This document shows positions 1-22,706 of a DNA stretch of 29,067 nt, piece after piece (the stretch's first letter is position 1; every line of letters begins with the position of its first letter). The notes beneath the pieces are model-generated. The model did no database searches, was not told where the DNA came from, and saw only the letters and a program-made list of their open reading frames with translations. The stretch is from the NCBI GenBank assembly GCA_964561585.1, contig CAZLQB010000002.1:1-29067 (forward strand). The letters run 5' to 3'. The stretch comes from an uncultured Pseudomonadota bacterium (GTDB lineage: Bacteria; Babelota; Babeliae; Babelales; RVW-14). Made by a program: the position numbers and the translations under genes.

Positions 1-99
1 AAGAATGGCCAGCTATAACAAACACCGGATATATTCTTCACAAGGGCTCCGTTGTTATGATTTTTGGGCTTGAGGGGAATAAATTAATCGTTCGATAAT

Positions 100-130
100 C
101 CTAGGGAGGTGCAGGAGGGAACGGCCTGCA
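100..130 (+). repeat. Short GC-rich palindromic repeat (copy A): cctagggaggtgcaggagggaacggcctgca. It contains the inverted repeat TGCAGG...CCTGCA.
   Basis: An exact 29-bp match to the reverse complement of 22678..22706. An expanded copy lies at 5636..5702. GC-rich against an AT-rich background. Confidence 0.8.
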
Positions 131-169
131 ATACATTAATTCTGCATTTTAAAAATATAAGGATTTTAT

Positions 170-1135: not shown

Positions 1136-3043
1136 TTGTTGCGCCGCCTAGTCATTATAATCTTATTTTTCTGTTGCACCGGAATAGGGGCTCTTTTTTA
1201 TTTATTTGAAAAAGAGTGGGTTGATTTTTCGGCGCTCGGCTATTATTCAAATGCAAAACCATCCATTGTCCTTGACGAAGAAGGACGAGAAATAGGCCGG
1301 TTTGAACTTGATCGCCGAGACCCGGTAACCTATGATAAAATACCGGATATTCTCATTAAAGCATTTGTTGCGACCGAAGATCATCACTTTTTTGAGCACA
1401 CAGGAATTTCTATTAAAGGTATTGTTCGATCATTCTTGGTCAATATATATCATGGACGCGTTGTACAAGGCGCAAGTACCATAACCCAACAACTTGCCAG
1501 AACCATGTTTTTGTACCATGATCGTACCGTTTGGCGCAAAATCCAAGAAATTTTTATCGCATTCCAACTCGAGCGCCAACTCAGCAAAGAACAAATTATG
1601 GAGCTCTACCTTAATAACATATATTTTGGCCGCGGCACCTATGGCGTTGAAGCTGCCTGCAGAAGATTTTGGAACAAAACGCTTGATCAAATTACAACGG
1701 CCGACGCAGCCACCTTGGCGGCCGTTGCGGCATCAGCACGTCTCTATTCGCCGCTTAATGCACCATGTTCGGCTAAAAAACGACGCAACATTATTATTAC
1801 CGCAATGCTTAAACAGGGCTTTATCACCTTAAAAGAAAGTGAGCATGCAAGAAAAGAAAAGCTAACAGTCCTTGATTTTGTTCAAGGCAACCCAATCCGG
1901 CTTTATATTCTTGAATGGATAAGAACATGGGCCGAAAGCATTTGGGGCAAGGACGCGCTTTACCGCAAAGGCCTGCGCATCCAAACATCAATAAATCTTG
2001 AGGTCCAGGCGGCGGCAGAAAAATCTTTTGCCAATATCGCAACTCTTTTACGCAAACAAGTTGGCGAAAACCTCAATGGAGGACTCGTTTCGATGGAACC
2101 ATCAACGGGACAAGTAAAGGCTTTTGTTGGTGGTATTAATTTTAAGGAATCACAATTTAACCGCGCGTTTCAAGCTCACCGCCAAATGGGATCATCGTTC
2201 AAGCCGTATATCTATGCTTATGCACTTGAGCGCGGCCAGGAACTTGATCAAATTATGGTTGATGAACCGGTCGAACTAACCATGCCCAACGGCCAAACAT
2301 GGACACCAAAAAACTGGAATAACACCTTCGAAGGCCCTATGACGCTTGCACGAGCACTCACCATGTCCAATAACATTATTACAATCAAATTATTCCTCGA
2401 CCAAGGAATCAAAGATATGGTGGCATGGGCTAAACGTTTTGGATTTAAAAATAGCGTTCCCCCATATCCATCGGCAGCACTTGGCACAACCGAGGTTACG
2501 GTCGAAGAAAATTGCGCAGCGTTTAACGTTTTTGCAACCAACGGCATGTTTGTAAAACCTTATCTCATCGACTGGGTAAAGGATGAATGGGGCGCAAAAC
2601 TGTGGGAATATGAACCGGTTAAATACCGCGTCATTTCAAGCAAAATAGCATCTAAAATGATTAACGCCCTTTCGCACCGCATGGCAATCAATAAACAGCA
2701 ATCACGATTCGGTTGGTTCGATGCCGATAGCATTGGAAAAACGGGATCAACTAATGGTGCGGCAACTACCTGGTTTGTTGGCGCTACACCTGGTTTGACA
2801 ACGGCTATATACCTTGGCCGCGATGACAATAAGCCAATGGGATCACAGATATTTGCAAGCGCAACGGCTTTCCCTGTCTGGCTTGGACTCTATAATGCAA
2901 TTCCTCACCATAAAAAACATTTCTATACCGATCCTGGTTTACACGAAGTCTCAATTGATTGGGTAACCGGATTATCAAGCTCGTACGAACCAATGCTTAA
3001 TGCTCAGGATTCGGCACAGACGATAAAGATATTAAAGGGATAG
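1136..3043 (+). CDS. Class A penicillin-binding protein, a bifunctional peptidoglycan glycosyltransferase/transpeptidase (PBP1A-like). It starts with TTG.
   Basis: GT51 motifs are present: ATEDHHFFEHTG, GASTITQQLAR and RKIQE...LER. Transpeptidase motifs are present: SSFKP (SxxK), SNN (SxN) and KTGS (KTG). N-terminal TM anchor. Confidence 0.85.
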   Translation: MLRRLVIIILFFCCTGIGALFYLFEKEWVDFSALGYYSNAKPSIVLDEEGREIGRFELDRRDPVTYDKIPDILIKAFVATEDHHFFEHTGISIKGIVRSFLVNIYHGRVVQGASTITQQLARTMFLYHDRTVWRKIQEIFIAFQLERQLSKEQIMELYLNNIYFGRGTYGVEAACRRFWNKTLDQITTADAATLAAVAASARLYSPLNAPCSAKKRRNIIITAMLKQGFITLKESEHARKEKLTVLDFVQGNPIRLYILEWIRTWAESIWGKDALYRKGLRIQTSINLEVQAAAEKSFANIATLLRKQVGENLNGGLVSMEPSTGQVKAFVGGINFKESQFNRAFQAHRQMGSSFKPYIYAYALERGQELDQIMVDEPVELTMPNGQTWTPKNWNNTFEGPMTLARALTMSNNIITIKLFLDQGIKDMVAWAKRFGFKNSVPPYPSAALGTTEVTVEENCAAFNVFATNGMFVKPYLIDWVKDEWGAKLWEYEPVKYRVISSKIASKMINALSHRMAINKQQSRFGWFDADSIGKTGSTNGAATTWFVGATPGLTTAIYLGRDDNKPMGSQIFASATAFPVWLGLYNAIPHHKKHFYTDPGLHEVSIDWVTGLSSSYEPMLNAQDSAQTIKILKG

Positions 3044-3250
3044 GCTCGAGCGCCGTTCGTACCCATTCGACTACGCTCAGGGCGAACGGCGGATTAATAT
3101 CCTGCACCGCGTCGAAGGACGCCCTGTAATTGCTATGGCGGACAGGCAGAACGAACGAGTAAAATTTCGTTCGTGGTGAGCGAAGCCCCTTTGGGCGAAG
3201 TCGAATCCACATGAAATTTTGAGCATATCGAACCACCGCCCAAAAGAGCG
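3044..3250. repeat. GC-rich, multi-hairpin intergenic element between convergent genes. It may be a composite palindromic repeat or a small structured RNA.
   Basis: Several perfect stems are visible: CGCCGTTCG/CGAACGGCG (3051-3059/3083-3091), ACGAACG/CGTTCGT (about 3150-3175) and CCACCGC/GCGGTGG (about 3234-3253). It contains the module ggcggacaggc shared with the uvrC insertion (reverse complement gcctgtccgcc). Confidence 0.6.
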
Positions 3251-3285
3251 GTGGACAAACATCATATTATAAAAACAGAAAGCTA

Positions 3286-4830
3286 TTATCGATTCAGAAA
3301 ATAAACATCAAGCTTGAAAAGCTTACGCGTTAGATACAACCCGGCCATAACAATCAAAGCCCAGGTAGATGCAAATACCCAGAACCCAAGCCAATGCTTT
3401 ACCCATACCAAATGCATATGTGCCGTATAATAACCAACGACAAAAATTAAGCTGGCAAGCAACAACTGGACAACATAGCGGCCCAAGAAATTGAAGTAAT
3501 TGCCCGAATAAAAGGTAAATCCATGCTTGGTGCGCAAGAAATAGAAACACATAAAGGTCATCGTAATGCCAGACCATACAACGGCAGCGGCGATACCATA
3601 AGAACCCCACAAATACATACCGGCCGCATCACCACCCAAATTGACCAACGCAGAAACGCCAGCGGCAATTGTTGTTGATGTGGTATCTTTCATTGAATAA
3701 AAAACACTCAATAAAATCTTGTTTAAGCACAAAAACAACAACGCACAAAGATAAATCATGAGGATAAAACCGGCCTCAGAAACTTGTGCTGCCGTTTGTT
3801 TTTTGGAAAATAAAATCATTTCATAGATTGGTTTTGATAAGAAAATCATGGCCAACGTTACCGGAATAACTACCCATGTCACCAATTTTGCCGACTCAAG
3901 AATATAGAAATTAAGACGACGTGGCGCATATAAAACAACGCGTGAAAAGTGAGGCAATAAGACGCTCGTTAACGCTACGGCAACAACGCCCAATGGAATG
4001 TTCATAAAGCGGCTACCATAATGCAACAAGGTCACCGAACCCTTGGGCAGATATGAAGCAAAAATACCACTCACCAAAAGATTTATCTCAACAATACTAA
4101 CCCCGAATAAGCAGGGGAAAAACTTGGTCAAAACATTTCTAAATAAAACCTTAACCTGCGGGGTTATGGCACCAAACTTGAAGTTCAATTTAAAGTAAAA
4201 ATAAATATGCAAAAGTAATTGAACGGCCGCCCCGGCCAAAACGCCTCCACAAATAAACATGGGCGTCAGGTTATAATTCAGCGCAAGCAACAAAGCCCCG
4301 ATATAAACCATATTCCACAGCGGCGTGCCAAATGCCGGAGCAAAAAAGTGATTAACCGATTGCAATGCACCAGCAAATAATGAGCTGCTTGAAACAAACA
4401 ATAAAAATGGAAATAAGACGCGTAAAAAGGGGATAGCGTACGTCACCTGTTCTTCTGAAAATCCGGGAGCAAAGAGCCAAACAACAAGGTCGGCCTTAAA
4501 AAAAACAAAAATACACAGCAATAAGACTAACCCCTCAAAAAACAAAAGGGCGATGGTCATTAATCCATTCGATGTTTCCCGATCCCCTTCCTTTACACTT
4601 TTCACAAATTCGGGAACAAAGGATGCGCTCATGGCACCTTCGGCAAATACATGGCGAAAAAGATTAGGCAATTTAAATGCCGCCAAATAAGCATCAGAAA
4701 CCGCACCAACACCAAAAAATCTTACGATAAAAACTTCTCGAATAATTCCCAGAAGGCGACTAAAAAAAGTAATGCCACCAACCTTGGCCGCATTTTTTAC
4801 AATGACACTTTTATGCAGATGAAGGCTCAT
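3286..4830 (-). CDS. murJ: Lipid II flippase MurJ (MviN)
   Basis: The N-terminus FFSRLLGIIREVFIVRFFGVGAVSDAYLAAFKLPNLFRHVFAEGAMSASFVPEF matches the MurJ signature region. A multi-TM protein of 514 aa. SD AAGGAAA lies 5 nt upstream. Confidence 0.9.
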   Translation of the reverse strand: MSLHLHKSVIVKNAAKVGGITFFSRLLGIIREVFIVRFFGVGAVSDAYLAAFKLPNLFRHVFAEGAMSASFVPEFVKSVKEGDRETSNGLMTIALLFFEGLVLLLCIFVFFKADLVVWLFAPGFSEEQVTYAIPFLRVLFPFLLFVSSSSLFAGALQSVNHFFAPAFGTPLWNMVYIGALLLALNYNLTPMFICGGVLAGAAVQLLLHIYFYFKLNFKFGAITPQVKVLFRNVLTKFFPCLFGVSIVEINLLVSGIFASYLPKGSVTLLHYGSRFMNIPLGVVAVALTSVLLPHFSRVVLYAPRRLNFYILESAKLVTWVVIPVTLAMIFLSKPIYEMILFSKKQTAAQVSEAGFILMIYLCALLFLCLNKILLSVFYSMKDTTSTTIAAGVSALVNLGGDAAGMYLWGSYGIAAAVVWSGITMTFMCFYFLRTKHGFTFYSGNYFNFLGRYVVQLLLASLIFVVGYYTAHMHLVWVKHWLGFWVFASTWALIVMAGLYLTRKLFKLDVYFLNR

Positions 4831-4890
4831 GTATTTCCTTGTTTTTTTTACCCGAAATTTAAACTATTTATTCGCCCCAGCTTATACAAA

Positions 4891-6573
4891 TCATACACCA
4901 TTATCAAGGCCTTTTCGCGCTATTTTACGGTGAAAACTAATGGCAAAGTGGTGAGTATAGTCACGCAGGGCAATCAATAGCTGGCCGGCAAAGGTCATTT
5001 TATCAAGACGACGCCCCTCTGGAAGCCGATCGGCGTAAACAGTTTCTTCGCGTTTTGCCAAACTGATAACATCAACCCCGTCCGGTATTAGTGGCCGCGT
5101 AGCCGATAACTGCCCTTTCCCACCATCAATTACCACAAGATCGGGTAAATCTTCCCCATCACGGTACCGCCGCCCAACAATCTCGGCCAAACTGGCATAA
5201 TCGTCCTGCCCTTTAACCGTTTTTATATGAAAATGGCGAAACATTTTTTTGTCAGGCTGGCCATCGGTAAACCGCACACAAGACCCAACCATAAACATCC
5301 CTTGCTTGTGAGAGATATCAAAACAATCGATTTTGCGCGGCTCTTTGGCCAATTTAAGGAGTCGTTTAAGGGATTGGCCCAACGTTGCCTTTTTGATAAG
5401 TTCCTGCGCAACCTGGACCGTTGCATAGCGTATTAATGACAATTCATGGCCAATAGTAGGCTGCATAATGGTCACCGGTTGGTCAAGGTGGTGCCATTGA
5501 GTTAAAAACTGTTGGTACAAATCTCGTTCGGCCGGCGCAAGGTCAAAATTGACGAGTATTCTGATGGCTGGTCTAAAGGTTCGGTAATAACCTATAAAGT
5601 ATTCTTCTAAATTTTGCGGCTCATAAGGGGGTTCTCCAAGGGAGGTGCAGGAGGGCCTGTCCGCCGTAGCCACGCCAGGGCGAAGGCTGGAAACGGCCTG
5701 CATTAAATCAATATCAACAAAAGGAAAATAGAAACTTTGTTTAAGCCTCAGCACATTTTGCTGCTCAATCAAAACATGAAGCGACCTTTTATCATCGGCC
5801 AAAATCCAAATATCATGCCCAACCCGCCCGCCAACACTCATAGGCTTAATATCTAAATACGAAAAAACCTTATGGCACGCTGTGTAATACCCGTGTAATT
5901 CACGCGCACGCTCAAATTCTTCCCGCTTATTGCATGCCTGTATTTGCGCCATAAGGTCATCAAGAAAAACTTTATGCCCCTGCGACATCACCCGCCGCGC
6001 GAGATTAAGCCGTTCGGTATATGCTGCTTCATCAAAATCAGGCCGGCATTTTCCAGCGCAAATGCCAAGGTGATAGTCCAAGCACCCATTTTCAATCTTT
6101 TTTTTACATAACTTAAGGCGAAATGTTTTTATCAAAAAATCATAAACTTGGCGCGCCGCAGCCTTTTCAAGAAACGGTCCTAAATAGGTCCCCTTTTGCT
6201 TACGATTTCGCACCAATTTAAGCTCAGGCAATTTATTGGCCGTAAAAAGCAGGAATATAAACGGCTGGCCGGTCTTGAGTAAAACGTTAAATTTTGGCTG
6301 GTTGCTTTGAATAAGTTGAGCCTCAAGCAACATCGCCTCAAGTTCAGTTCCGGTTATCTGGTGGTCAAGGTGGTCACTTTCTTGCAATAAACTATCAACC
6401 TTTACATCTCGCCCAGCGCGCTGCAAATAATTGGCTCCGCGCTTTTTGAGGTTTTTCGCCTTGCCTATATAAAGAATATGGCCTTCGGCATCCTTAAAAA
6501 GATAAACGCCTGGCTTAGCGGGCAACTTTTTGATATCGGCAGCAACTTTTTCATGTTCAGTTAAAAGAATCAT
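4891..6573 (-). CDS. uvrC: Excinuclease ABC subunit C (UvrC), carrying an in-frame repeat insertion
   Basis: N-terminal GIY-YIG domain (PGVYLFKDAEGHILYIGKAKNLKKR). Endonuclease-domain motif IDCFDISHKQG. SD AGGAGAGG upstream. The repeat at 5636..5702 is translated in-frame (QAVSSLRPGVATADRPSCTSLG) in the linker before the endonuclease domain. Confidence 0.85.
   Translation of the reverse strand: MILLTEHEKVAADIKKLPAKPGVYLFKDAEGHILYIGKAKNLKKRGANYLQRAGRDVKVDSLLQESDHLDHQITGTELEAMLLEAQLIQSNQPKFNVLLKTGQPFIFLLFTANKLPELKLVRNRKQKGTYLGPFLEKAAARQVYDFLIKTFRLKLCKKKIENGCLDYHLGICAGKCRPDFDEAAYTERLNLARRVMSQGHKVFLDDLMAQIQACNKREEFERARELHGYYTACHKVFSYLDIKPMSVGGRVGHDIWILADDKRSLHVLIEQQNVLRLKQSFYFPFVDIDLMQAVSSLRPGVATADRPSCTSLGEPPYEPQNLEEYFIGYYRTFRPAIRILVNFDLAPAERDLYQQFLTQWHHLDQPVTIMQPTIGHELSLIRYATVQVAQELIKKATLGQSLKRLLKLAKEPRKIDCFDISHKQGMFMVGSCVRFTDGQPDKKMFRHFHIKTVKGQDDYASLAEIVGRRYRDGEDLPDLVVIDGGKGQLSATRPLIPDGVDVISLAKREETVYADRLPEGRRLDKMTFAGQLLIALRDYTHHFAISFHRKIARKGLDNGV
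5636..5702. repeat. Expanded copy (B) of the palindromic repeat, with a 35-bp internal module, sitting inside the uvrC coding sequence
   Basis: ccaagggaggtgcaggaggg + cctgtccgccgtagccacgccagggcgaaggctgg + aaacggcctgca. The flanks are identical to copies A and C. The internal module is related to 3100..3146 (reverse complement). Confidence 0.8.
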
Positions 6574-6584
6574 TATAGCCTCTC

Positions 6585-7454
6585 CTAAAATTCTGGCGGC
6601 GAATCAAGCAAATTACAGGAAGGTAATGGTTGCACAATCACAATAAGATCAATAATTCGAGGATCCAGGTAATCATAAACACTATTCGTAAGCACCCCAC
6701 CGTCAAAACATCGTAGCAAATCTACCAATTTTGGCATCAAATGGGTCGGTTTATTATAATCATCGTCATCCAGAAAAGCATATGCTTTGGGGTGAGCTGG
6801 AGTTTCAAGAATATGATCAATAATCGACCGCTTCCAACCACCAACAAGTCCACCCATTTTTTCACGATCCATTTCTTTGCGAACCTCAAGAACCTCCTGG
6901 TACATGTCCCTGGGCATGGCAAATAAATTTTCAGATGTAAGCCCGCACAGCCCATAAAAACGAAGCTCTTCAACCAAAAAGGACTTATGATCAATCACAT
7001 TACCAGACTCGTCAATAAAACTTTCTGGCCGAGCCGTTATGATATAAATAGGGACTCCAAGCTCATGCAATTCATTAAAAAAACTTATTACCGAGGGAAT
7101 AAAAGACATCGTTGCCCCGGGGAGCTTATCAATAGCCTTAAAATCTTCACCTGTCCTAATTAATACGCCATCAATATCAAAAGCCACAAAAAACGAAATT
7201 TTACCGAAGTTATTATGTTCATATACTTTTGCACGAACGTCTCTAATTTGCGCCCGCATAAGCTGCAACCATACCGTATAAGCGGCCCTTATCTTTTTGA
7301 TTTCACGTTCACCGTCCAATGAAGCGGTGGCCAAATCAGGGGAAGCTTCAACAGGAGCATCAGGCAGTTTCATTGCACTTAAATAGCGACCCCCGTATAT
7401 ACATGTTGTTAAAAACATAGCAGCAATTAAAAGTTTTTTTTTGATAAAAGACAT
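6585..7454 (-). CDS. Secreted lipoprotein of the HAD/DDDD phosphohydrolase superfamily (class B/C acid-phosphatase-like)
   Basis: The likely start is MSFIKKK at 7454, with a GAGGGGG SD. Signal peptide with a lipobox-like LTTC. HAD motif I FDIDGVL, then IITARPE, and an acidic FLDDDDYN cluster. 11 nt upstream of uvrC on the same strand. Confidence 0.5.
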   Translation of the reverse strand: MSFIKKKLLIAAMFLTTCIYGGRYLSAMKLPDAPVEASPDLATASLDGEREIKKIRAAYTVWLQLMRAQIRDVRAKVYEHNNFGKISFFVAFDIDGVLIRTGEDFKAIDKLPGATMSFIPSVISFFNELHELGVPIYIITARPESFIDESGNVIDHKSFLVEELRFYGLCGLTSENLFAMPRDMYQEVLEVRKEMDREKMGGLVGGWKRSIIDHILETPAHPKAYAFLDDDDYNKPTHLMPKLVDLLRCFDGGVLTNSVYDYLDPRIIDLIVIVQPLPSCNLLDSPPEF

Positions 7455-7656
7455 CACGCCCCCTCTAAAAAATATCACACCAAAAAGCTACCAAGATTTC
7501 TTATCATAACAAAAAACAGTGCGCCTGATAATTTATGACTGCAATTTATTTCTTGTTCCAAGCAAATTTATTGTACTTTTGTTTACTGACACAAAAAAAC
7601 AGGTATATTTATAGCACGTTTTAGTAGTTAATTAATCATTATATTGCGAGTTTATC

Positions 7657-11295: not shown

Positions 11296-11384
11296 ATGGT
11301 GCCGAGGGCCGGACTCGAACCGGCACGGGTTGTTCACCCGAGGGATTTTAAGTCCCTTGCGTCTACCAATTCCGCCACCCCGGC
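11296..11384 (-). tRNA. tRNA-Leu (anticodon UAA)
   Basis: The reverse complement folds as a cloverleaf: acceptor GCCGGGG/CCTCGGC, anticodon loop CTTAAAA, a long variable arm, T-loop TTCGAGT and an encoded CCA. Positions A36-A37-A38 make it an i6A37/ms2i6A37 substrate. Confidence 0.85.
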
Positions 11385-11395
11385 AACCATATATG

Positions 11396-11469
11396 TGGAG
11401 GCGGCACCCGGATTTGAACCGGGGGTCGCGGATTTGCAGTCCACTGCCTTACCACTTGGCTATGCCGCC
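11396..11469 (-). tRNA. tRNA-Cys (anticodon GCA)
   Basis: Reverse complement GGCGGCATAGCCAAGTGGTAAGGCAGTGGACTGCAAATCCGCGACCCCCGGTTCAAATCCGGGTGCCGCCTCCA. Anticodon loop CTGCAAA, T-loop TTCAAAT and an encoded CCA. Confidence 0.85.
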
Positions 11470-11482
11470 ACACAATTTTTTT

Positions 11483-12922
11483 TCAAGGAACAATAACTGC
11501 TGACATATTGGCTGGGCCAACGTGTTCAATCCGCACCGTCACAAACTGACCTATAAGGTCGTCATTTCCATCAAGAAGCACGCGGATATTTCCTTCAGTT
11601 CTTGATAAAAGTTTACCACGAGCTAGCCGTTTTTCAACAAGAACTTTAAAGTTTTTACCAATATGAGCAGAATTTACCGCTGCAGCAATCTCAATTTGTC
11701 GTTTTTGCAAAAATTCAAGCCGCCTTGTTTTTTCGGCCAAAGAACAATTATCCTCCATAGAACACGCTTTGGTATGGCGACGCGGCGAATAGATAAAGGA
11801 ATAAATCAAATCAAATCGTACGTTTTCTATCGCCTGCATAGTCTCCAAAAATTCTTGTTCGGTTTCGCCCGGAAATCCAACAATAAGATCGGTTGATATG
11901 CTTGCGCCGGGTAATTTTTCTCGAATCCACCCAATTTTTTCCATATATTCTTTGATGGTGTAATTTCTATTCATAAGCTGCAAAATTCTATCGCACCCAG
12001 ACTGCAGGGGAAAATGTATAGCGGCCGTTATTTTAGGCCGGTGCGCGGCAATAACGTCAAAAAGATCAAGGGTCATATCCTGAGGATGAGGACTGATAAA
12101 TCGAATCCAAAACGATCCAGGGATTTTGGCAACACGGTCAAGTAATTCAGGAAATTGCGCACCTGTTTCCAGGTCTCGGTATGAATTAACATTTTGACCA
12201 ATCAACGTTACTTCACGTGAACCCATGGCGACATCCTTGGTAACCGCGTCAATAATATCACGCATTGGATAACTGATCTCGCGCCCTCGGGTAAAAGGCA
12301 CAATGCAATATGAGCAATACTTGTTGCACCCGGTCATAATATTGATAAACGAGCGCTTAATTTCATCGGCTTTATTGCTTGCAACGCCATCATGTACATG
12401 TTTTTTTAGATTAAATTCACTGATATTGACCGGCAATATTTTGGTGCCTTTAAGCAGTGCCCGCCGCTCAACAACATTTTTAACGTCACGGTCTTGCCTA
12501 TTTTTTCCACCAATGTGGCTTTGAGGATCTTGTTCATGCAATTGTTTGAGGGTGCTTATTTTTTCTATGGCGTCGGCAAGATATGCTTGTAACGTCTGAA
12601 TCTCATCTCGTGCTCCATAAACAAAAGCAATGTGATCAAACGATTGATATATCTCAAGTTTACGATAACTGGCAACACACCCAATAACACCGATTTTTAC
12701 ATACGGTTTTGCTTTTTTTAATGGCGCTAGTTCACCAATATACGAATACAGCTTCTGCTCTGCCTTATCACGAATTGCACACGTATTGATAAGAATAAGA
12801 TCGGCCTCATGCAATGTATTTACCTGCTCACATCCAAGATCAAGCAAATACCGAGCAAGCCCTTCTGAATCGGCAACATTTGCCTGACATCCATATGTTT
12901 TTATAAAAAAAGAAACCACCAC
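11483..12922 (-). CDS. miaB: Radical-SAM tRNA methylthiotransferase of the MiaB family. It starts with GTG.
   Basis: N-terminal MTTase domain (IKTYGCQANVADSE), radical-SAM CxxxCxxC (CNKYCSYC) and a C-terminal TRAM-like region. Its stop lies 14 nt upstream of tRNA-Cys on the same strand. Confidence 0.8.
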   Translation of the reverse strand: MVVSFFIKTYGCQANVADSEGLARYLLDLGCEQVNTLHEADLILINTCAIRDKAEQKLYSYIGELAPLKKAKPYVKIGVIGCVASYRKLEIYQSFDHIAFVYGARDEIQTLQAYLADAIEKISTLKQLHEQDPQSHIGGKNRQDRDVKNVVERRALLKGTKILPVNISEFNLKKHVHDGVASNKADEIKRSFINIMTGCNKYCSYCIVPFTRGREISYPMRDIIDAVTKDVAMGSREVTLIGQNVNSYRDLETGAQFPELLDRVAKIPGSFWIRFISPHPQDMTLDLFDVIAAHRPKITAAIHFPLQSGCDRILQLMNRNYTIKEYMEKIGWIREKLPGASISTDLIVGFPGETEQEFLETMQAIENVRFDLIYSFIYSPRRHTKACSMEDNCSLAEKTRRLEFLQKRQIEIAAAVNSAHIGKNFKVLVEKRLARGKLLSRTEGNIRVLLDGNDDLIGQFVTVRIEHVGPANMSAVIVP

Positions 12923-15421: not shown

Positions 15422-16732
15422 ATGACGAAAATCAATACGCAAGTTATGTCCGGGTTTATGGAATTACTTCCCGCCGACCAACTCCTCTTTAATAAGATGC
15501 TCGATACAATTAAAACAACTTACGAACGCTTTGGCTTTATACCACTTGATACCCCAGTAATTGAACGGGCGGAAGTGTTATTTACTAAGGCCGGCGAAGA
15601 AACAGAAAAACAAATTTATCGCATCGATAAAGGCGAAACCCCACAAGCATTGCGCTTTGATTTAACCGTCCCCCTTGCCCGTTATGTAAGCGAACACATG
15701 AATGAATTAGCGTTCCCATTTCGTCGTTATCACATTGGCAAGGTGTATCGTGGTGAACGGGCACAAAAGGGCCGCTACCGCGAATTTTACCAGTGCGATA
15801 TTGATATTATTGGTAATGAACACCTTCACTTGATCAATGATGCTGAAATTTTGAGCGTTATTAACGCAACATTTACAGCGCTTAATGTTGGTGATTTTAC
15901 CATCCGCATCAATAACCGCAAAATCCTTAATGGCTTTTTTGCCGGCCTTGGCGTTGGCGAGCAAATGACCCCCATTCTCCGTATTATCGATAAACTAGAA
16001 AAAATTGGTCGCGATAAAGTAATTGCCGAACTTGAAATTGCAGGAATTACCGGACCTATTATCGAAAAGATTTTAACCTTGGTCGCCCTTCGTGGCACAT
16101 CAACCTCAGTAATTGCAACGCTCAATAACCTCGCGATATCAAACGACCTATTTACACTCGGCGTCCAAGAAATGACCGCAGTTACCAAACACCTTGAAGA
16201 ACTTGGCGTTCCGACATCAAATTATGAACTTGATCTTTCAATTGCACGCGGCCTAGATTATTACACCGGCACCGTTTACGAAACAATGTTAAATGCCCTG
16301 CCTCAAATCGGGTCGGTTTGTTCGGGCGGCCGTTATGATAATTTGGCCGAATCATTTTCTAACAAAAAACTACCGGGCGTTGGCATATCAATTGGCCTCA
16401 CCCGCCTTTTTTCACAACTTAAAGAACATGCGCTTATCAGCTCAAATACAAGCACCCCAACAAAAGTAATGGTTATCCCGTTAATCGAAACGCTTACCAT
16501 TCCACTCGAAATAGCCACCAAATTACGTACCGCAGGAATTAACACCGAAGTCTATTTAGAAACCGGAAAAATGAAGAAAAAACTCGATTACGCCAATAAG
16601 TTGGGCATCGCTTTTGTTATTTTGGTCGGTGAAGATGAAATTAAGGCCGATAAATATACGGTCAAAGATATGAAAACCGGCGAACAAAAAACAGTAGGCC
16701 GCGACACTTTAATACAAAGCATCACGGCCTAA
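15422..16732 (+). CDS. hisS: Histidine--tRNA ligase
   Basis: Class II motif 2 with the HisRS signature (YHIGKVYRGERAQKGRYREFYQCDIDIIG), the histidine-binding GGRYDNL motif and a C-terminal anticodon-binding domain. Confidence 0.9.
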   Translation: MTKINTQVMSGFMELLPADQLLFNKMLDTIKTTYERFGFIPLDTPVIERAEVLFTKAGEETEKQIYRIDKGETPQALRFDLTVPLARYVSEHMNELAFPFRRYHIGKVYRGERAQKGRYREFYQCDIDIIGNEHLHLINDAEILSVINATFTALNVGDFTIRINNRKILNGFFAGLGVGEQMTPILRIIDKLEKIGRDKVIAELEIAGITGPIIEKILTLVALRGTSTSVIATLNNLAISNDLFTLGVQEMTAVTKHLEELGVPTSNYELDLSIARGLDYYTGTVYETMLNALPQIGSVCSGGRYDNLAESFSNKKLPGVGISIGLTRLFSQLKEHALISSNTSTPTKVMVIPLIETLTIPLEIATKLRTAGINTEVYLETGKMKKKLDYANKLGIAFVILVGEDEIKADKYTVKDMKTGEQKTVGRDTLIQSITA

Positions 16733-21874: not shown

Positions 21875-22666
21875 TCACAAATCAATCAATTGAACATTTG
21901 CAACAATGTCCCCAATCAACCGACGAGCAATAAACTGAAATTGCTTCGCATCCTTGGTCGCATAAAATTGATAATTTGGTATATCAACCAGAGCATTTTG
22001 CAGCAAAACACGTTTAACCTGCCGCGCAACAGGATCATTTGAATCAAGAATGGTCACCGAAGGGCCAACGATGCTTTGTAATTGTGCACGCACAAAGGGA
22101 TAATGGGTGCTACATAAACCAATAACGTCCGCATTATTATCTATTGCTGGAGCAATAAGCGTGCGTAGTAATATTTCCATTTCAGGTGTATTAATCTTGC
22201 CCGCTTCAACCAAATCGGCAAGGCCCGGACACCCAATACTCAAAACCTGTGCACCATGAGCAAACTTATTAATAAGATCCTGGATATAATTACCACTGGC
22301 CGTTAATGGCGTAGATAAAATAGCAACACAGCCTGTTTTTGTTTGTTCACAAGCGGGTTTGACAACCGGAACCACCCCGACAAATGGGATGGAGAATTTT
22401 GAGCGCAAATAGTCGATGCTTGCAACCGTTGCCGTATTGCAAGCAATAACAACTAATTTTACGTCATGTTTATCGATCAAAAATTGTACAATTTTTTCTG
22501 AAATTTGCTGGATCTGTTCGGTGGTTTTTTGACCAAACGGCATGTATTTATTGCCCGCAACATACACAATATCTTCGTTGGGCAATAAACGCGTAATTGA
22601 TTGGAAAATGCCGAGGCCGCCAACCCCAGAATCAAACATGCCGATAGGTTTATTTAATAAAGGCAT
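21875..22666 (-). CDS. murI: Glutamate racemase
   Basis: IGMFDSGVGGLGIF N-terminal motif, with the conserved Cys-containing motifs (VIACNTA and GCTHYP). Confidence 0.9.
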   Translation of the reverse strand: MPLLNKPIGMFDSGVGGLGIFQSITRLLPNEDIVYVAGNKYMPFGQKTTEQIQQISEKIVQFLIDKHDVKLVVIACNTATVASIDYLRSKFSIPFVGVVPVVKPACEQTKTGCVAILSTPLTASGNYIQDLINKFAHGAQVLSIGCPGLADLVEAGKINTPEMEILLRTLIAPAIDNNADVIGLCSTHYPFVRAQLQSIVGPSVTILDSNDPVARQVKRVLLQNALVDIPNYQFYATKDAKQFQFIARRLIGDIVANVQLIDL

Positions 22667-22677
22667 TGTTAATTATA

Positions 22678-22706
22678 TGCAGGCCGTTCCCTCCTGCACC
22701 TCCCTA
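22678..22706 (-). repeat. Palindromic repeat copy C (an exact inverted copy of 102..130), lying in the 44-bp secA-murI spacer
   Basis: tgcaggccgttccctcctgcacctcccta is the reverse complement of tagggaggtgcaggagggaacggcctgca. Confidence 0.8.

Follow-up and report, generated by a model that had tools for sequence, protein, structure and literature searches.

A GC-rich intergenic island between PBP1A and murJ as a probable mosaic of short interspersed hairpin repeats

The contig CAZLQB010000002.1 (assembly GCA_964561585.1), which is referred to here at its full length of 29,067 nucleotides (nt) as the window, carries a compact GC-rich, hairpin-rich island in the spacer between two convergent genes. 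An open reading frame (ORF) of the PBP1A family occupies positions 1136-3043 on the plus strand (526 bits, reaching the family cut-off of TIGR02074), and a MurJ ORF lies opposite to it at 3286-4830 on the minus strand (TIGR01695, 306 bits); a UvrC ORF, matching its family in two stretches, is found further on at 4891-6573, also on the minus strand. The convergent spacer between PBP1A and murJ spans 3044-3285, or 242 base pairs (bp), and the island itself accounts for about 210 bp of it. Here, we describe the modular architecture of this island and the recurrence of its parts at other loci, and we discuss why it is probably a mosaic of interspersed repeats.

The composition and folding of the island had been noted in an original prediction made from the letters of the window, and its descriptive claims agree with our analysis. 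The island is richer in GC than its surroundings, at 0.55-0.60 compared with a contig mean of 0.415; 100-nt segments hold a GC content of 0.56-0.60 across 3050-3199 and of about 0.42 in the surroundings, and only 0.4% of all 150-nt segments in the contig are as GC-rich as the island. The predicted minimum of three perfect stems of 7-9 bp corresponds to inverted repeats of 9 bp (3051-3059/3083-3091), 8 bp (3151-3158/3167-3174) and 7 bp (3233-3239/3248-3254), and the predicted near-palindrome is GGATTAATATCC at 3091-3102. The module said to be shared with an expansion inside uvrC was located at 3120-3147, matching 5655-5682 in inverted orientation over 28 nt with 82% identity. In addition, imperfect long-range inverted arms pair 3065-3088 with 3168-3206. 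When 3044-3285 is folded as RNA, the plus strand reaches -86.5 kcal/mol, compared with -64.3 ± 4.3 kcal/mol for dinucleotide shuffles (z -5.18, 0 of 200 shuffles), and the minus strand gives a z of -3.09 against the same type of shuffle. One hairpin starts 8 nt past the PBP1A stop codon, and the 62-nt stretch around it folds at -21.6 kcal/mol; a second lies 31 nt past the murJ stop codon, where the 61-nt 3′ stretch of murJ folds at -19.4 kcal/mol (z -3.8).

The island can be divided into a series of modules. Module A (3050-3091, minus strand) is a single canonical hairpin with an outer stem formed by CGCCGTTCG (3051-3059) and CGAACGGCG (3083-3091), and, further inward, with a TA bulge, an inner stem of CCC (3062-3064) and GGG (3080-3082), and a conserved loop that reads TGAGCGTAGTCGAA on the minus strand (3066-3079). 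It is the sole strong match of covariance model R1 in the contig (41.5 bits, E 4.7e-7), and its pattern occurs there once, against 0 occurrences expected. Positions 3091-3120 on the plus strand form the second part of a recurrent unit, U1, and contain a small hairpin, GGAT-TAAT-ATCC, followed by the degenerate half-module TCC-TGCACCGCGTCGAA-GGA (3100-3119). Module B, which reads GCCTGTCCGCCATAGCAATTACAGGGCG on the minus strand, occupies 3120-3147 and is the piece that is shared with uvrC. It is followed by a junction hairpin without strand assignment (3149-3174), in which GAACGAACGA and TCGTTCGT(TC) enclose an AT-rich loop; the GTTCG-type feet of two inverted modules make up this hairpin. Module A3 (3168-3210, plus strand) is a loop-expanded half-module, CGTTCG-TGG-TGAGCG[AAGCCCCTTTGGGCG]AAGTCGAAT-CCA-C, with a nested hairpin in its loop and GCGAAG on both sides of that hairpin; R1 matches it at 3167-3193 (16.7 bits, E 0.043) and at 3195-3205. 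An AT-rich filler (3211-3232, no strand) closes with TCGAA-CCAC, a motif present here for the second time through local duplication of 3202-3210, and leads to the terminal hairpin CCACCGC-ccaaaaga-GCGGTGG (3233-3254, no strand), which has a 7-bp stem and is the hairpin downstream of the murJ stop. Module A3 is inverted relative to module A and makes a dimer with it, and the island thereby contains an inverted pair of one module family, A on the minus strand and A3 on the plus strand.

These pieces recur at other loci, in other combinations. The 35-nt core at 3054-3088 is 100% identical to positions 16532-16566 of the relative L001, a non-orthologous site inside a mosaic between NfeD and Band_7 genes; the NfeD/Band_7 spacer measures 71 nt in the window (99-169), whereas in L001 it holds a 297-nt GC-rich mosaic (16280-16576). 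Positions 3050-3122 match the contig end of L052, which belongs to a relative with 73% MurJ identity, at 94.5% over 73 nt, and 3050-3095 matches L076. A metagenome scan with a pattern made of the first hairpin and the next half-module retrieved two more U1 copies, L124 and L125, both in AT-rich contigs. Alignment with these four loci delimits U1 as 3050-3120, with similarity stopping past TCGAAGG, and in the window the PBP1A stop cuts off the left end of the unit. The U1 copy of L076 is flanked by 13-nt inverted repeats, CCAGGAGGGAGGG and CCCTCCCTCCTGG; no target-site duplication was found beside the island or beside U1. The junction-hairpin arrangement is repeated in L052 as cacgaacgagtgttttatgattcgttcg, and the loop-expanded A3 subtype is also present near 16470-16483 of L001, 309-322 of L052 and 596-609 of L125. 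At the murJ end of the island, 3228-3241 matches 4824-4837 of L003, and the terminal hairpin has its counterpart in L001 and L003, where A2-type modules are followed by a CCACCGCCC...GGGCG hairpin. Relatives carry between one and three module sites per 2-22 kb fetched. Separately, L124 (~4860-5080) and L125 (~7330-7540), which come from one metagenome, have in common a composite of ~200 nt that includes several modules and their flanks, so that whole mosaics, beyond single modules, can be duplicated.

The phylogenetic setting of the window was established through MurJ, and orthologous junctions were fetched via the MurJ proteins of relatives. The nearest named homologues belong to metagenome-assembled genomes (MAGs) of candidate division TM6/Dependentiae/Babeliales, at no more than 63% identity, and unnamed relatives reach 83, 76, 73, 71 and 70%. 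As the MurJ proteins of the relatives and of the window group with TM6/Dependentiae/Babeliales proteins, the label 'Pseudomonadota' attached to the closest relatives (CAZGPI and CAZBUZ assemblies; L001/L017 and L003/L052/L068/L076) is probably wrong. Dependentiae are ATP-importing, host-dependent bacteria, and the gene content of the window, with a TLC ATP/ADP translocase, SecA and T2SSE, fits this description.

The murJ junction itself differs from one relative to the next. It measures 452 bp and consists mostly of different repeats in L001 (11546-11997; MurJ 83% identical), shrinks to 22 bp in L127 (76%) and to 3 bp in L004 and GCA_041443025 (71%), contains a PDDEXK_9 gene and a repeat dimer in L003 (73%), and is occupied by an unrelated ORF of 328 amino acids (aa) in L126 (70%); L128 (63%) is not syntenic. 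The island shows no colinear similarity to the spacers of L001 or L126, and the sole piece that it has in common with the L001 spacer is a B-like module (11940-11955, three mismatches), located on the same side of the junction as module B. The L001 junction also carries three hairpins of the form TGTCACCCTGAACGTGATTCAGGGTCCA and variants, which fit the CGTC-type format of repetitive extragenic palindromic (REP) elements (PMC3733652), and a canonical terminator, a hairpin followed by a T-run, is seen after murJ in this genome. In L003, a compact dimer of A, A2 and a hairpin stands right after the murJ stop, in the opposite orientation relative to murJ, and folds as a single long hairpin. The island in the window is this compact L003-type dimer enlarged by further modules: its halves have been pulled apart by the remainder of U1, the copy of module B, the nested hairpin in the A3 loop and the small duplication. 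The NfeD/Band_7 spacer, short in the window and filled in L001, is the mirror image of the murJ junction. Such an exchange of occupied and unoccupied sites between two genomes with 83% MurJ identity is expected of interspersed repeats and would not be shown by a conserved RNA gene, and the aligned junctions argue strongly against an ancestral origin of the island as a unit.

The extra genes at this junction also bear on a different explanation, namely that the island is the decayed remnant of something larger, either an insertion sequence, of which the ends would be left, or a gene such as those encoding the L003 PDDEXK_9 protein or the 328-aa protein of L126. Two relatives have an extra gene at exactly this position, and in L003 the repeat dimer adjoins it. 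However, tblastn of the extra L003 and L126 proteins against 2990-3330 gave no match, neither of the two minus-strand ORFs within the island (79 and 62 aa) has a Pfam or NCBIfam match, and at other loci the modules lie far from any such gene. We regard a decayed remnant as highly improbable.

Evidence of recent change lies within uvrC. An in-frame insert of 36 nt (5656-5691, plus strand) contains the copy of module B and encodes SSLRPGVATADR, 12 residues in a variable linker of UvrC that are present only in the window in the UvrC alignment, and absent from the L001 and L003 orthologues. This insert splits a copy of a second, 27-nt repeat, the S repeat (GGGAGGTGCAGGAGGGAACGGCCTGCA), which occurs in the window at 102-130 (plus strand), 5640-5702 (plus strand) and 22678-22706 (minus strand), and in relatives at 9164-9190 of L001 and at 2255-2281 and 11495-11521 of L003. 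The S repeat has a 6-bp stem, TGCAGG/CCTGCA, and the uvrC insert sits in its loop. It is 100% identical at one uvrC position in the window, L001 and L003 (MurJ being 73-83% identical). The S repeat may be a 5′-untranslated region (UTR) element or a second repeat family. In three places it lies upstream of a start codon, 14-40 nt away and in sense orientation: those of Band_7 (ATG at 170), murI (ATG at 22666) and one gene of L003. The island does not contain the S repeat itself; what the two loci have in common is module B.

In light of these comparisons, we propose, with a probability of about 80%, that the island represents a mosaic, located between genes, of short interspersed repeats that are GC-rich and form hairpins, resembling REP elements and REP doublets forming hairpins (REPINs) and built in the style of bacterial interspersed mosaic elements (BIMEs) or neisserial intergenic mosaic elements (NIMEs), which accumulated at the murJ/PBP1A junction of one Dependentiae lineage. 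The modules would be non-autonomous repeat DNA, spreading into gene-free 3′ junctions and into sites next to or within existing copies, and persisting where insertion is harmless, as in the 3′ junctions of genes and in variable protein linkers. Their spread would probably be mediated by a hairpin- or single-strand-specific enzyme acting in trans (a REP-associated tyrosine transposase (RAYT), HUH-like or other), or by recombination between copies. Transposases of the RAYT kind are single-strand transposases specific for hairpins (PMC3116915, PMC3337134), and by analogy a RAYT-type enzyme would be the obvious candidate mobiliser of the modules. The island would be transcribed as the 3′ UTR of both flanking genes, its stable hairpins blocking read-through and protecting against exonucleases and 3′ decay, and we infer that it has no RNA or protein product of its own.

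Of the ideas put forward in the original prediction, that of a composite repeat is upheld, since each recognisable piece recurs in the contig, at non-orthologous sites of relatives or in other phyla. The idea that this composite is a nested cluster of the uvrC repeat family failed, as the family in the island is that of the GTTCG-NNN-TGAGCGNAGTCGAA-N'N'N' hairpins. [quoted passage not shown] Such a gene would be consistent with the strong folding of both strands (z -5.2 and -3.1), and the module hairpin is conserved in structure, with covariation. However, the Rfam search that had been suggested as a check returned no family on either strand: at the gathering threshold, a scan of the whole window yielded two tRNAs at 11300-11469 and nothing in the island, a permissive scan of 2950-3350 produced partial matches at chance level around the last hairpin (S15 leader, GcvB and others), and ten loci with canonical module copies gave nothing relevant. 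ARAGORN detected no tRNA or transfer-messenger RNA in the island, where scans also found no sigma-70-like promoter site and no hairpin followed by a T-run. In five relatives the orthologous junction either lacks the island or has other content in its place, and the same pieces are found at unrelated loci and in unrelated phyla. Structural conservation among copies, which the original prediction had named as a test, was present in the sense of a repeat-module hairpin and missing in the sense of an RNA gene. A small RNA gene is therefore very unlikely. In annotation, the island should be masked as an interspersed repeat, with the 79-aa and 62-aa minus-strand ORFs left uncalled and no small RNA predicted.

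A comparison with intrinsic bidirectional terminators is suggested by the stable GC-rich hairpins directly after both stop codons, and by a module copy in L055 (TM6) that lies between an A-run and a T-run in a bidirectional-terminator-like context. In contrast to such terminators, the hairpins of the island are not followed by U-tracts, as illustrated on the murJ strand by UUCGAUAU, the sequence after the hairpin at 3233-3254, and the island far exceeds a terminator in size. Across the scanned part of the contig (1-20000), promoter- and terminator-like patterns occur at chance level. One convincing canonical terminator was seen in this part, a 17-bp hairpin followed by a T-run at 16695-16731 (minus strand), where hisS and an 860-aa ORF converge.

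Among known repeat systems, the REP elements and BIMEs of Enterobacteria provide the closest point of comparison in location and organisation. REPs are palindromic units of 20-40 bp with stems of 6-13 bp, usually with loops of 2-5 nt, and with a GTAG or CGTC tag left unpaired at one end, and they have been arranged into super-families by tag (Di Nocera et al. 2013, PMC3733652); they are mainly situated between convergent or same-direction genes, and some are in-frame insertions in genes for DNA repair, those for excinucleases among them (PMC3733652). Like REPs and BIMEs, the modules are short GC-rich palindromic units, either alone, paired as inverted dimers or clustered; they are found mostly at convergent or same-direction sites near the 3′ ends of genes and as an in-frame insert in an excision-repair gene, uvrC, and the window shows all of these features. 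Where Dependentiae-type sites have genes on both sides, 10 of 10 are intergenic and convergent or same-direction, with 0 divergent, and modules A and A3 are inverted relative to each other, as expected from the location of REPs at 3′ ends and in inverted dimers. The modules differ from REPs in their stem and loop, module A, at 42 nt, closing its conserved 14-nt loop with a 3-bp inner stem that a bulge separates from the 9-bp outer stem, and the stem next to the loop comprising only 3-4 bp across modules. They differ also in the tag, since GTAG lies inside the loop TGAGCGTAGTCGAA and not at the terminus, and no CGTC or TGTC tag is present in the modules of the window. As both the short loop and the terminal tag are missing, we file the island under short interspersed palindromic repeat mosaics, and not under REPs proper.

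REPINs consist of two inverted units with a short spacer that form one long hairpin (Bertels and Rainey 2011, PMC3116915), and this doublet format is seen in the compact L003 dimer; in the window, the pair is 80 nt apart. However, the units are unlike REPIN units in sequence and architecture. REPINs have a population structure within the genome and go with a cognate, single-copy RAYT, an IS200/IS605-type Y1 transposase; there is no RAYT among the genes of the window. NIMEs with their dRS3 repeats (PMC1797815; PMC3733652) are intergenic blocks of several short repeat families in variable order that differ between close relatives, and the island agrees with this mosaic format, which is common to BIMEs and NIMEs, in its succession of A, U1, B, A3 and terminal hairpin and in the other combinations present in the L001, L003, L052, L124 and L125 spacers. 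In contrast to NIMEs, it has no boundaries of the dRS3 type (ATTCCC-N8-GGGAAT), and CGTC-like hairpins are restricted to the L001 junction. Finally, the Rickettsia palindromic elements (RPEs) and the QMITEs of Coxiella (PMC5896051) are repeats of host-associated bacteria that, like module B with its 12-aa insert in UvrC, are located in spacers and in frame in genes, but both are longer defined elements, QMITEs with terminal inverted repeats, and the likeness is one of description only.

The module family extends well beyond the Dependentiae. Each half-module has a GTTCG foot and a covarying stem of 3-4 bp that closes a conserved 14-nt loop, TGAGCGNAGTCGAA; an outer stem, GTTCG...CGAAC, encloses the covarying stem and the loop, and modules are often arranged in inverted pairs. 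Across 222 distinct instances, the invariant core is 14 nt long (TGAGC-NNN-GTCGAA) and is usually preceded by CCGTTCG. The stem triplets are of the types CCC/GGG, TGC/GCA, GGC/GCC, TCC/GGA and TGG/CCA, and they are complementary in 90-92% of the 222 instances, compared with 55-63% after shuffling. In a formal count over 64 distinct copies, 86.3% of cells were paired, against 68.1% in shuffles (0 of 500), and the covariation score was 0.543, against 0.236 in shuffles (0 of 500) and at most 0.166 with partner columns slid; these pairing figures count sequences and not independent events, although at least five stem types are involved. Past CCGTTCG/CGAACGG, the excess of outer-stem pairing is weak. 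The GTTCG/CGAAC feet seem unlike the core-site consensus of integron attC sites. The modules may bear a partial resemblance to the inverted repeat of the Tn3 family (ACGCTCAG...GAACG); those in the window do not begin with a GGGG end of the Tn3 kind, and no target duplication was found.

The core 23-mer TTCGACTAYGCTCAGGGCGAACG is present without mismatch at no fewer than 118 genome loci, whereas ~0.03 would be expected (our own estimate, over 596 Gb). Among the matches listed, about half belong to Sphingomonas/Sphingobium, and the remainder include Chloroflexota/Dehalococcoidia/Herpetosiphon, Tectomicrobia, Thiobacillus, Propionivibrio and other Proteobacteria, with Betaproteobacteria represented, as well as Dependentiae/TM6 MAGs of 27-30% GC. 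The identity of the 23-mer in unrelated GC-rich taxa, together with the position of repeats at contig ends in some MAGs (L052 and L002), could point to an artefact of assembly or binning, a Dependentiae contig having taken in GC-rich reads of foreign origin (Sphingomonas or Chloroflexota, for instance). This is extremely unlikely. The island is about 210 bp long and has syntenic genes on both flanks, modules are carried in their own spacers by at least five independently assembled Dependentiae-type genomes or metagenomes, and the lineage-specific subtypes with the TA bulge and the U1 unit are common to Dependentiae-type genomes and not to the GC-rich taxa.

The persistence of a GC-rich module with a conserved loop and a covarying stem in genomes of 27-30% GC (L015, L062, L079 and L055) would be in keeping with an arrangement like that proposed for BIMEs, a cluster of DNA sites bound by a protein of the host (a nucleoid factor, a gyrase/IHF-like factor or a recombination factor, for instance), with the 14-nt loop as a recognition element kept by selection and not by mobility. 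In addition, a module dimer occurs in ~17 Sphingomonas species (L010, L016, L032, L041, L045 and ~12 further loci) at what is apparently one orthologous locus with conserved flanks, which suggests long retention there and not recent insertion. On the other hand, presence and absence differ between close relatives at two junctions, there is one island only in 29 kb, no candidate protein was found, and the insertion into the coding sequence of uvrC resembles mobility and not site selection. We therefore consider a cluster of binding sites unlikely as an account of the island.

Several observations weigh against a mosaic of mobile repeats. No transposase is encoded among the genes of the window, and no ends of the island, target-site duplication or pair of empty and filled sites were defined at nucleotide resolution. 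The window contains only one island of this module family in 29 kb; REPs are characterised by a high copy number within a genome. Given the B-like module on the same side of the L001 junction, some of the island may be of inherited origin, as opposed to a new insertion. The covariation within the modules fits a function at the level of RNA as well as at that of DNA. As the hairpins of the island lack U-tracts and terminator-like patterns are not enriched, a terminator role is weakly supported. Finally, all-against-all BLAST of the ORFs from the 118 loci revealed no neighbouring protein family common to different phyla, and synteny was restricted to Sphingomonas.

In itself, the island is fairly ordinary bacterial junk or terminator-type DNA, and the module found across phyla is its sole curious point. 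The core module, with CCGTTCG, a covarying stem of 3-4 bp and the loop TGAGCGNAGTCGAA, often arranged in head-to-head pairs and sometimes with other modules nested in its loop, may tentatively be viewed as an undescribed pan-bacterial hairpin family, although we think this rather doubtful. In a literature search of incomplete coverage, the module DNA and its encoded peptides matched no relevant paper, and no paper tied Dependentiae to REP or MITE-like repeats; owing to this coverage, the absence of papers is weak evidence of novelty. If the family is indeed undescribed, its core module would be a candidate hairpin of wide distribution, either mobile or recognised by a protein. Two explanations would then be implied for the near-identity seen between Dependentiae (27-44% GC), Sphingomonas, Chloroflexota, Tectomicrobia and Betaproteobacteria, namely a host function common to them, or horizontal spread on repeated occasions with a mobilising or binding protein of very high sequence specificity, and Dependentiae islands would offer a tractable window on such a family. 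For the Dependentiae, a repeat mosaic at the murJ junction implies that, over the time in which species diverge, GC-rich repeat mosaics still come and go in these reduced, host-dependent genomes, at gene junctions and even within uvrC.

A viral vector for the modules was also considered and rejected. In IMG/VR, the 23-mer of module A has 0 matches, and a 16-mer of module B has 75, nearly all of them in unrelated contexts and, by our own rough estimate, at about the number expected by chance. In the Dehalococcoidia loci L008, L014 and L021, modules are nested in the loops of other modules, in the form GTTCGTGGTGAGC[...CCCTGAGCGAAGCCGAAGGG]AACCAC, and are interleaved with dRS3-like GGATTCCCGC...GCGGGAATGAC hairpins.

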